From: a virus | Lineage: Duplodnaviria > Caudoviricetes | Strand: one strand, 5' to 3' | Length of the DNA: 64,000 bases | Virus record (IMG/VR): IMGVR_UViG_3300042567_001420 | Shown: positions 27,756 through 28,883 of the stretch, piece by piece | Numbering within the stretch: position 1 is the stretch's first letter | Layout: every line of letters starts with the position of its first letter | Made by a program: the position numbers and the translations under genes | The notes under the pieces: generated by a model | Database searches by the model: none | What the model saw: the letters and a program-made list of their open reading frames with translations, nothing else | What the model was told of the DNA's origin: nothing

Positions 27756-28883
27756 TTAGTTACTGATGGCCATGCTGTGAAAATAACCTGCGGCAACACT
27801 TGACCAATTAGTTAAAGCCCCAATTTGCACCGGACTAGATCTATCTGTAGTATTTCCTAAACCCAATTGACCCGTATTATTAAAACCCCATGACCACATG
27901 GTACCGTCTGTTTTGATGGATAGGTTGTGATATTCACCGGCATCAACACTTGACCAAGTGGTTAACGCGCCAATTTGTGTTGGACTAGATCTATTTGCGG
28001 TATCGCCTAAACCCAATCGCCCCGCATAATTTCTACCCCATACCCACATGGTACCATCTGTTTTAATGGCCAAGTTATGATATTGACCAGCAGCAATATT
28101 TAACCAATTAGTTAAAGATCCAACTTGTTTTGGACTAGAATAGTATGTCGTATTACCTACCCCCAATTGCCCAAAATTATTTTTACCCCATAACCACATG
28201 GTTCCATCTGTTTTAATTGCCGATGTGTGCTCATAACCTGCAGCAATATTTAACCAATTAGTTAAAGATCCAACTTGTTTTGGACTAGAATAGTATGTCG
28301 TATTACCTAGGCCTAATTGCCCTTTACCCCCAATACCCCATACCCACATGGTACCATCTGTTTTAATGGCCAAGTTATGATATTGACCAGCAACAATATT
28401 TGACCATGTGTTTAATGCACCAACCTGTACTGGACTAGATACAGATGTAGTATTACCTAGGCCTAATCGCCCGGCGGACCCGTTACCCCATACCCACATA
28501 GTACCATCTGTTTTGAGCGCCAGATTGTGTTGACCACCTGCACCAATTTTTGCCCAGGTAGTTAATGCACCAATTTGTACTGGATTTGAATAATTTGTGG
28601 TATTACCTAAACCTAATTGACCAAGGCTACCCGATCCCCAAGACCATAGTGTACCATCTGTTTTAATGGCCAAGTTATGATATTGACCAGCAGCAATATT
28701 TAACCAATTAGTTAAAGCCCCAACTTGTACAGGACTAGATCTATCGGTAGTATTGCCTAATCCTAATTGACCTGAATTATTTCTGCCCCATGACCACAGG
28801 TATTGCGGAGGAGGTGGCGGCGGAGCTGGGCATACTAGATTAAACCCGCCCCTTGTTGAAAAACCTGAAAAGGTAAATGCCAT
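27756..28883 (-). CDS. RCC1/BLIP-II beta-propeller protein (start revised to MAFTFSG)
   Basis: Seven repeats; ATG at 28883 matches the paralog starts and A-rich leader; PAPPPPPP. Confidence 0.9.
   Translation of the reverse strand: MAFTFSGFSTRGGFNLVCPAPPPPPPQYLWSWGRNNSGQLGLGNTTDRSSPVQVGALTNWLNIAAGQYHNLAIKTDGTLWSWGSGSLGQLGLGNTTNYSNPVQIGALTTWAKIGAGGQHNLALKTDGTMWVWGNGSAGRLGLGNTTSVSSPVQVGALNTWSNIVAGQYHNLAIKTDGTMWVWGIGGKGQLGLGNTTYYSSPKQVGSLTNWLNIAAGYEHTSAIKTDGTMWLWGKNNFGQLGVGNTTYYSSPKQVGSLTNWLNIAAGQYHNLAIKTDGTMWVWGRNYAGRLGLGDTANRSSPTQIGALTTWSSVDAGEYHNLSIKTDGTMWSWGFNNTGQLGLGNTTDRSSPVQIGALTNWSSVAAGYFHSMAISN

Follow-up and report, generated by a model that had tools for sequence, protein, structure and literature searches.

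The DNA analysed here is a stretch of 64,000 nucleotides (nt) from a virus of the Caudoviricetes (Duplodnaviria; IMG/VR virus record IMGVR_UViG_3300042567_001420), referred to at its full length as the window. The gene under study, g05, is an open reading frame (ORF) on the minus strand that runs from an ATG at 28883 to a stop at 27756 and encodes 375 amino acids (aa). Its translation begins with a short N-terminal module (MAFTFSG...N-L-V), continues through a PPPPPP linker and ends in seven repeats, or blades, of 50 aa, between which short tracts of DNA have been copied. The source is an uncultured freshwater T4-like myophage, whose gp61-type primase shares 43% identity with those of Melnitz, Pelagibacter and Synechococcus myophages; the window also encodes NrdA/B, ThyX, a dCMP deaminase and a SegE-like GIY-YIG nuclease. 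Including g05, it holds 12 RCC1-like paralogues of seven blades each, which gives 84 units, the number of homologous 150-nt units counted in an earlier note on this DNA (the original prediction). Units range from 46 to 56 aa and are exactly 50 aa long in 52 of the 72 internal cases, and the other 11 propeller ORFs are 52-66% identical paralogues. All genes around g05 lie on the minus strand, and the gaps between genes of the main array (24278 to 34368) measure only 12-30 nt. The propeller genes are located as follows.

27756 to 28883, minus strand: g05, RCC1-like seven-blade propeller gene (translation, Pfam, structure model, Foldseek)
24278 to 34368, minus strand: main array, g02-g09 (eight propeller genes) and one Gly_rich_2 gene (32331-33209); propeller ORFs besides g05 at 24278-25429, 25442-26563, 26580-27728, 28897-30027, 30043-31176, 31195-32301 and 33226-34368
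7899 to 9035, minus strand: g01, displaced propeller paralogue (Pfam, exact-match search)
39919 to 42342, minus strand: two propeller paralogues, g10 and g11, whose N-terminal module differs (39919-41112 and 41131-42342)
50830 to 51948, minus strand: g12, propeller paralogue between giant fibre-like genes

Comparison of g05 with Pfam identified seven RCC1 repeats (PF00415; E 1e-89, 295 bits against a cut-off of 21.7) and the RCC1-like domain (RLD) WD40_RLD (PF25390; E 5e-89, 299.5 bits against a cut-off of 150). An AlphaFold2 (AF2) model with a predicted local distance difference test score (pLDDT) of 89 and a predicted template modelling score (pTM) of 0.86 has four strands per repeat, formed by LWSWG, xSSPVQ, WxxIxA and HxxAIK. 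By Foldseek, the best match of this model is UVR8 (E 1e-38, template modelling (TM) score 0.85, root-mean-square deviation (rmsd) 1.5 Å, 32% identity), followed by the HERC2 RLD, HERC1, RPGR and RCC1, with rmsd of 1.5-3 Å among the top matches. With repeats scoring above the cut-offs and a modelled seven-bladed fold that superposes on solved RLDs, g05 is assigned to the RCC1/RCC1-like family. Its predicted architecture of seven repeats of about 50 aa, each a four-strand blade, is that of the UVR8, HERC2, HERC1 and RCC1 RLDs. The phage blades differ from those of solved RLDs in being much more alike (57% aa identity) and in having one whole face (GALTNW, KTDGT) nearly invariant, and, compared with UVR8-type RLDs, the phage propellers lack the Trp triad and the C-terminal extension and have instead the short N-terminal module and poly-Pro linker. 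Guanine-nucleotide exchange activity towards a Ran-type GTPase marks RCC1 proper rather than the RLD fold family, and it is unexpected in a phage.

Any two blades share about 57% aa and 63% nt identity irrespective of gene and of position within it, and the position-by-position matrix of blade identity is flat. The near-fixed framework that had been described for the blades is borne out by per-column entropy over the 84 aligned units: G5, Q36, G38 and W43 are invariant in 84/84, P34 is present in 83/84, and KTDGT and SSP are near-fixed. High entropy was likewise found at both motifs that had been named as variable, WG-x-N-xx-G (columns 6, 12 and 13; 3.57, 3.24 and 3.47 bits) and G-xx-H-xx (columns 54 and 57-60; 3.57, 3.08, 2.43, 2.77 and 2.86 bits). 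To these can be added column 15 in G-x-LG (2.63 bits), columns 29 and 31 in TT-x-x-SSP (2.99 and 2.28 bits) and a second tier at columns 44, 49 and 51 in W-x-x-[IV]-x (2.1-2.6 bits). In composition, the variable columns favour Y (13.5%), S (12.7%), N (9.8%) and R (9.5%), as is typical of binding sites. The codons at invariant Gly, Leu, Gln, Thr and Ala columns are as diverse as those used across the array; therefore synonymous sites are saturated, and the framework is kept by selection rather than by homogenisation. Only a few columns prefer particular codons (TCT-AGT for Ser-Ser, AAA-ACA-GAT-GGT for KTDG), which explains why codon identity within the window slightly exceeds expectation (0.52 versus 0.42). 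The SSPVQVGALTNW / AIKTDGTLWSWG framework recurs in blades of other viral contigs, which resemble the window blades almost as closely as these resemble one another (aa similarity 0.54-0.59 versus 0.60 within the window). The framework is thus an old, strongly selected, consensus-like repeat, against which the tracts of g05 are recent. The label "hypervariable", taken to mean accelerated evolution, is not supported: saturation of the variable columns could reflect relaxed constraint as readily as diversifying selection.

Two exact identities had been reported within g05, of 70 and 59 nt. Both are exact and neither can be extended, and a search for maximal exact matches across the whole window added tracts of 67 and 42 nt that had been missed. 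The copies are:

28090 to 28159, minus strand: 70-nt tract, blade 5 copy, exact match, encoding G-NTTYYSSPKQVGSLTNWLNIA
28240 to 28309, minus strand: 70-nt tract, blade 4 copy, exact match
28034 to 28092, minus strand: 59-nt tract, copy at the blade 5/6 boundary, exact match, encoding GQYHNLAIKTDGTMWVWG
28334 to 28392, minus strand: 59-nt tract, copy at the blade 3/4 boundary, exact match
28051 to 28117, minus strand: 67-nt tract, blade 5 copy, exact match
28651 to 28717, minus strand: 67-nt tract, blade 1 copy, exact match
28351 to 28392 and 28651 to 28692, minus strand: 42-nt tract, copies in blades 3 and 1, exact match

In the same whole-window search, the g05 tracts proved to be the longest in-register matches of all propeller genes, with runs of 22 (70 nt), 21 (67 nt) and 19 (59 nt) identical codons. 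Their significance was assessed against a null in which the codon-match probability of each alignment column is shifted to the overall similarity of the sequences compared, the shift being fitted either per blade offset, which is stricter, or per gene pair. The exact probability of the longest identical-codon run was then calculated for 930 tests (gene pair x blade offset; Bonferroni limit 5.4e-5). Under the per-offset null, only three g05 tracts get to the Bonferroni region (67 nt, p 8.8e-7; 70 nt, p 7.8e-6; 59 nt, p 5.8e-5); under the gene-pair null, their p-values are 2.2e-6, 1.5e-6 and 2.3e-5, respectively. A segment log-likelihood score that tolerates mismatches places the same three tracts on top (4e-9, 1e-6 and 7e-5). 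More broadly, 14-16 of the 72 same-gene tests have p<=0.05 (3.6 expected), and for 16 blades the nearest neighbour belongs to the same gene (6.1 expected, p 3e-4), while for 18 it occupies the same position in another gene (11.1 expected, p 0.03). Chance can be excluded as the source of the g05 tracts. A nucleotide-level null with independent sites, which yielded many small p-values, was dropped as too lenient, sites within a codon being correlated.

Alignment of the blades at the nucleotide level revealed that blade 5 of g05 is identical to blade 4 in columns 19-51 and to blade 1 in columns 40-69, and that the 5/6 junction matches the 3/4 junction; blade 5 combines blades 4, 1 and 3 in a mosaic. 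At the edges of the tracts, identity of 100% gives way to about 60% over a few bases. The patches are between one third and one half of a blade long, and some straddle a blade boundary. Short-patch conversion is favoured over whole-blade duplication because the donors overlap, the edges are abrupt and one tract crosses a blade boundary. The "recent blade copying" of the original prediction is accordingly solid as regards copying inside g05, with the correction that the copied units are patches of 42-70 nt rather than whole blades. The identical tracts, longer than chance allows and including synonymous sites, together with their sharp borders and mosaic donors, identify ectopic conversion in g05.

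An origin without conversion, by recent tandem duplication of whole blades with fast divergence of the loops, or by selection on codons or mRNA within a conserved peptide, could draw on the fact that the tracts consist largely of framework sequence, on the column-specific codon preference at some framework columns (TCT-AGT; AAA-ACA-GAT-GGT) and on the general closeness of the g05 and g01 blades to consensus. We consider it improbable. The null already includes column-specific codon-match probabilities and still returns values of 1e-6 to 1e-5. The tracts also cover the most variable columns, 54, 57, 59 and 60 (QYHNL) and 29 and 31 (YY), which are nt-identical inside them, and neither the abrupt edges nor the different overlapping donors of blade 5, with one tract crossing a blade boundary, are what duplication of whole blades predicts. 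As a result of the copying, blades 1, 3 and 5 now have one and the same QYHNL loop, and blades 4 and 5 share TTYY...NIAAG; copying in g05 has homogenised the top-face loops and did not diversify them. Internal tracts of 47 and 39 nt in g01, whose blades are more alike than those within any other family member (nt identity 0.74), are only suggestive of copying.

Since the window comes from a metagenome assembly of a repeat-rich region, a de Bruijn assembler could in principle have mis-threaded the repeats or merged strains into chimeric blades, and Logan unitigs do fragment exactly at the repeats, breaking where 31-mers recur. Nevertheless, identical 59-70-mers must exist in the reads, as an assembler cannot invent them. 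The g05 stretch was found in 20 lake/freshwater runs from 2016-2024, and in four of these, which come from different studies and years, unitigs reproduce the unique sequence separating tract copies without a single difference over 27246/27593-28063, 28130-28269 and 28363-28667. The unitig spanning 28130-28269 runs from the 70-mer of blade 5 across unique sequence into its copy in blade 4. The gene is also intact, with exactly seven blades, and an assembly artefact is therefore regarded as highly improbable. In one 2022 run (X20), contigs 7-10% diverged from g02 and g08 (24998-25357 and 31152-32304) occur together with g05 pieces identical to the window; they represent either a sister strain with unevenly diverged paralogues or the paralogues of another phage. 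Relative to the window, 6/11 replacements and 5/20 silent changes of X20 fall in high-entropy columns, a sample that is too small (40 of 508 differences listed) and of uncertain contig orthology.

The original prediction had further proposed that T4-type recombination could shuffle blades within and between genes. Within-gene copying is confirmed for g05; exchange between genes is only weakly evidenced. None of the 858 between-gene tests passed Bonferroni under the per-offset null, and a single between-gene tract passed under the gene-pair null (45 nt, p 1.4e-6):

32139 to 32183, minus strand: 45-nt tract, g08 blade 1 copy, exact match
50883 to 50927, minus strand: 45-nt tract, g12 blade 7 copy, exact match

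This tract links different blade positions. Among the same 858 tests there is a 1.5-2x excess of low p-values. In addition, the junction between linker and first blade (PEFYLWSWG) is nt-identical for 26-29 nt in g03, g08 and g12 and one base off in g01, with differing anchors upstream of the junction in these genes:

26469-26494, 32216-32244, 51854-51882 and 8938-8963: PEFYLWSWG junctions

These observations, the near erasure of positional orthology among blades and the SegE-like nuclease that adjoins g01 would suit a system of combinatorial diversification, in which frequent, selected patch conversion among the 84 blades of the 12 genes builds a repertoire in the manner of cassette-based antigenic variation. 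That such a system operates here is unlikely. No between-gene tract passes the stricter null, and frequent exchange would prevent the saturation observed at framework synonymous sites. Blades of the window are barely more alike (aa 0.60) than they are to those of other phages (0.54-0.59), the g05 pieces were unchanged in lake runs from 2016 to 2024, and the copying in g05 lowered loop diversity. Apparent joints in Logan contigs have short sides (24-69 nt) and 85% likeness, may belong to other organisms' paralogues, from which they are indistinguishable, and are uninformative on chimeric genes. It is similarly doubtful that the 84 blades form a pool of interchangeable cassettes, their top-face loops reshuffled across the 12 genes and inside each by short-patch recombination, perhaps under stimulation by the neighbouring SegE-type nuclease in co-infection, to give a changing receptor-binding library on a rigid scaffold.

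The variable columns were also placed on the predicted fold. Faces were assigned from the up-and-down meander topology, in which successive loops alternate between faces. On this basis, one face would be formed by the long loop WG-xNxxGxLGLGNTTx and the hairpin G-xx, where entropy exceeds 2 bits in 8/18 columns, and the other by GALTN and TDGT, where it does so in 0/9 columns (mean 0.62 bits); of the variable strand columns, 4/6 lie at the variable-face end. In a HMMER alignment to UVR8, columns 6, 12 and 29 correspond to W94/R146, D96 and D107, and columns 54 and 57 to W233/W285/W337 and R234/R286/R338. UVR8 W94, aligned with variable column 6, lies at the dimer interface. R286 (adjacent to the chromophore W285), D96, D107, R146, R234 and R338 are located at the dimer interface or beside the triad tryptophans of UVR8 (PMC5091643). 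Partner-binding residues of UVR8 (the Trp and Arg of GWRHT, D96, D107 and R146) thus fall on columns that vary in the phage blades, and the expectation that the variable positions lie on one propeller face is supported by topology and by the UVR8 alignment. Confinement of variation to short segments of a binding face is also a feature of the targets of diversity-generating retroelements (DGRs), and the variable loops might be attributed to targeted hypermutation, DGR-like or otherwise enzyme-driven. This we regard as hardly credible, since no blade pair has adenine-specific mismatches (over all ordered pairs, the adenine-/thymine-specific fraction reaches at most 0.53, median 0.32), no reverse transcriptase turned up among the ~47 window ORFs scanned with Pfam or PHROGs, and the same columns vary in the relatives from other phages.

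The propellers probably bind a host surface ligand through the variable face, either as virion-borne or as secreted proteins, to judge from fusions and neighbouring genes. In one related viral locus, L009 (6549-18431), six successive genes have N-termini that match PHROG tail-fibre/virion families, followed by RCC1 repeats. In another, L010 (2237-4843), an 868-aa protein ends in a propeller, its N-terminus being fibre-like by its repeats only. In both, the propeller is the C-terminal part of proteins of 540-900 aa and is predicted to be the distal domain of a fibre. The L010 fusion had no significant BLASTP similarity to the window's own 848-aa fibre (57378-59924), which matches PHROG tail-fibre families. 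P0001 itself matches PHROG 20500 ('tail protein'), and database homologues are fused to fn3, TIG, He_PIG and type IX secretion system (T9SS) sorting domains. In the window, the propeller genes are interleaved with fibre-like giant genes, and five Gly_rich_2 genes, sulfotransferases and a methyltransferase lie nearby.

Taken together, these data make it probable, in our judgement, that the window encodes paralogous rigid propellers with one variable face, and that sporadic, recent short-patch conversion has taken place in g05. About 36 positions per 50-residue repeat, namely those of the four strands, of the Gly turns and of the two loops on one face (GALT(N/T)W, KTDGT), would be under strong purifying selection. 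Some 12-14 positions would be free to differ, nearly all in or near the two loops of the opposite face, which would correspond to the UVR8 dimer-interface face. The paralogues would then be identical discs apart from one side, on which each exposes its own surface rich in Tyr, Ser, Asn and Arg. Because the blades repeat in phase every 150 nt, with about 63% identity and conserved stretches, general homologous recombination, presumably of the T4-type UvsX/UvsY kind, could occasionally copy short patches. At least three events in g05 with no substitution since, one between blades 4 and 5, one between blades 1 and 5 and one between the 3/4 and 5/6 junctions, would explain the tracts. Only conversion-type outcomes would survive, because unequal crossover would alter blade number and 12/12 genes have exactly seven blades. 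The analysis establishes the fold, the entropy pattern and the tracts, with their significance and their recurrence in independent samples; the direction of transfer between g05 blades, the enzyme system and the function we infer.

Several points weigh against this interpretation. Under the strictest null, the 59-nt tract falls just outside the limit (p 5.8e-5, limit 5.4e-5). No g05 orthologue above 65% identity was found, so that the conversion events are neither dated nor polarised, and the loss of the pre-conversion state in g05 was not directly seen. Megablast against 50,697 phage records returned no close relative of g05, the relatives in IMG/VR comprise 10 loci that are all <=61% identical, and a search of 5.8 billion proteins returned >8000 family members, the best at 65% identity; long tracts in relatives are only sporadic, such as one of 47 nt at offset 150 in L004. 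Recombination enzymes were not seen in the window. The moderately variable columns 44 and 49 would be located at the opposite strand end, and the face assignment follows strand topology and UVR8 homology rather than measured coordinates. Evidence for a virion association of the propellers is indirect, from gene context and fusions, and the eleven RCC1-like proteins of phage phAPEC6 have been proposed to act on DNA (PMC7247149). Finally, the T4 late-promoter motif TATAAATA has 9 matches in the window versus 10.2 expected by chance.

Several RCC1-like paralogues per large genome, as found here, are also present in the jumbo coliphage phAPEC6, in Synechococcus phage S-SRM01 and in the Clostridioides phiCD211 group. 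For the phAPEC6 proteins, a DNA-organising role has been suggested (PMC7247149). With tblastn, the RCC1-like sets of other phages were matched at 5-10 places per record with identity <=45%. In the papers searched, neither face-specific variability nor a shared anchor module nor blade-to-blade copying is described for phage RCC1-like sets; on function they yielded only the phAPEC6 remark, the prasinovirus and RcGTA hits being strain or locus names (RCC1108, rcc1083). In mechanism, the propellers resemble the T-even gp38/gp37 adhesins, in which hypervariable segments between conserved glycine-rich motifs are reportedly swapped by recombination at the motifs. In both cases, found in T4-type phages, conserved motifs would supply the homology for general recombination and variable binding loops would be carried along. 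The folds, however, are unrelated, and exchange in the propellers is mainly between repeats of one gene and homogenising in the one clear case. No gp38 homology of g05 was found, only RCC1 families having been matched in the Pfam/PHROG scans of P0001, and the likeness to a gp38-type adhesin would be one of mechanism only.

Identical patches that include synonymous sites, sharp borders and a maintained repeat number are shared with intragenic conversion in other tandem-repeat proteins. In contrast to concerted evolution, conversion in g05 is sporadic amid saturated synonymous divergence, and is not what maintains the likeness of the repeats. Mtd of Bordetella phage, a DGR product, likewise combines a fixed scaffold with a ligand-binding surface of variable residues; that protein has a different fold, and the window has no template repeat or adenine-specific pattern and no reverse transcriptase among the scanned ORFs. 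BLIP-II, the Streptomyces beta-lactamase inhibitor, is a secreted seven-blade RCC1-related propeller that binds its target through the loops of one face. It differs from the window family in being a single gene rather than an array. The case is a variation on known themes (an RCC1-like propeller, ectopic repeat conversion and motif-guided recombination as in T-even adhesins), not a new diversity machine. What is firmly established is limited to intragenic patch conversion, well documented in one phage RCC1-like protein, and a clear asymmetry between faces.

If the propellers bind the host, they would represent a third route to a variable set of adhesins, besides the swapping of whole fibre tips and retroelement mutagenesis. 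This route would rely on many copies of a rigid, consensus-like scaffold that differ on a single face, with ordinary recombination moving loop-bearing patches. A 57%-identical scaffold with one face invariant across genes and phages would be a natural analogue of designed consensus repeat binders, and the array of a phage that persisted in lakes (2016-2024) could serve as a system for measuring the rate at which a binding surface changes by ectopic conversion. Were the cassette-pool model true, it would provide a retroelement-free generator of diversity.

The short N-terminal module (MAFTFSG / MALTISG / MAISFNG ...), which continues in short beta segments, is found with its poly-proline linker in 10/12 propellers. 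It also heads the Gly_rich_2 genes at 9048-9944, 32331-33209, 49855-50814 and possibly 22039-22938, and it looks like a common docking adaptor that carries different heads. The N-terminus of g10 and g11 (40990-41112 and 42220-42342) reads instead YYGGLISAT..SASGIFNP..QMQAKRAG.WP, and much the same motif, SG[VIM]W.L....A..G.WP, precedes the propellers of unrelated viral contigs (L001, L004, L005, L006). By this recurrence it would be a second, widespread type of N-terminal adaptor. Positions of the first type of module are:

28800-28883, 25346-25429, 26480-26563, 27645-27728 and 29944-30027: N-terminal modules
33126-33209, 50731-50814, 9861-9944 and 22855-22938: N-terminal modules (continued)

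One match to TATAAATA, at 34810-34817 (minus strand), heads the tightly packed run from 34775 to 24278, and another, at 10370-10377 (minus strand), heads the group formed by SegE, the Gly-rich gene and g01. Each propeller gene is preceded by an A-rich stretch (AAAAGAAAAACAAA-ATG) without a classical Shine-Dalgarno sequence. The SegE-like GIY-YIG homing endonuclease itself (9946-10347; Pfam E 1e-37) lies directly upstream of the displaced pair of Gly-rich gene and g01. Between the two propeller blocks, the region 34843-39371 contains sulfotransferase paralogues (35459-36241 and 36238-37995), a DUF6445 protein and a methyltransferase. Four small paralogues of 109-123 aa (MA.TYKVLGQ..P...T...LYTVP...), with no match in Pfam or PHROG, adjoin giant fibre-like and Gly-rich genes:

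42344-42715, 49126-49455, 51958-52287 and 57039-57374: small paralogues

Exact repeats also occur in a fibre-like gene of 1295 aa (59954-63968), where 64 nt at 63285-63348 are identical to 63363-63426, 60 nt at 60699-60758 to 63858-63917 and 50 nt at 62334-62383 to 63324-63373.

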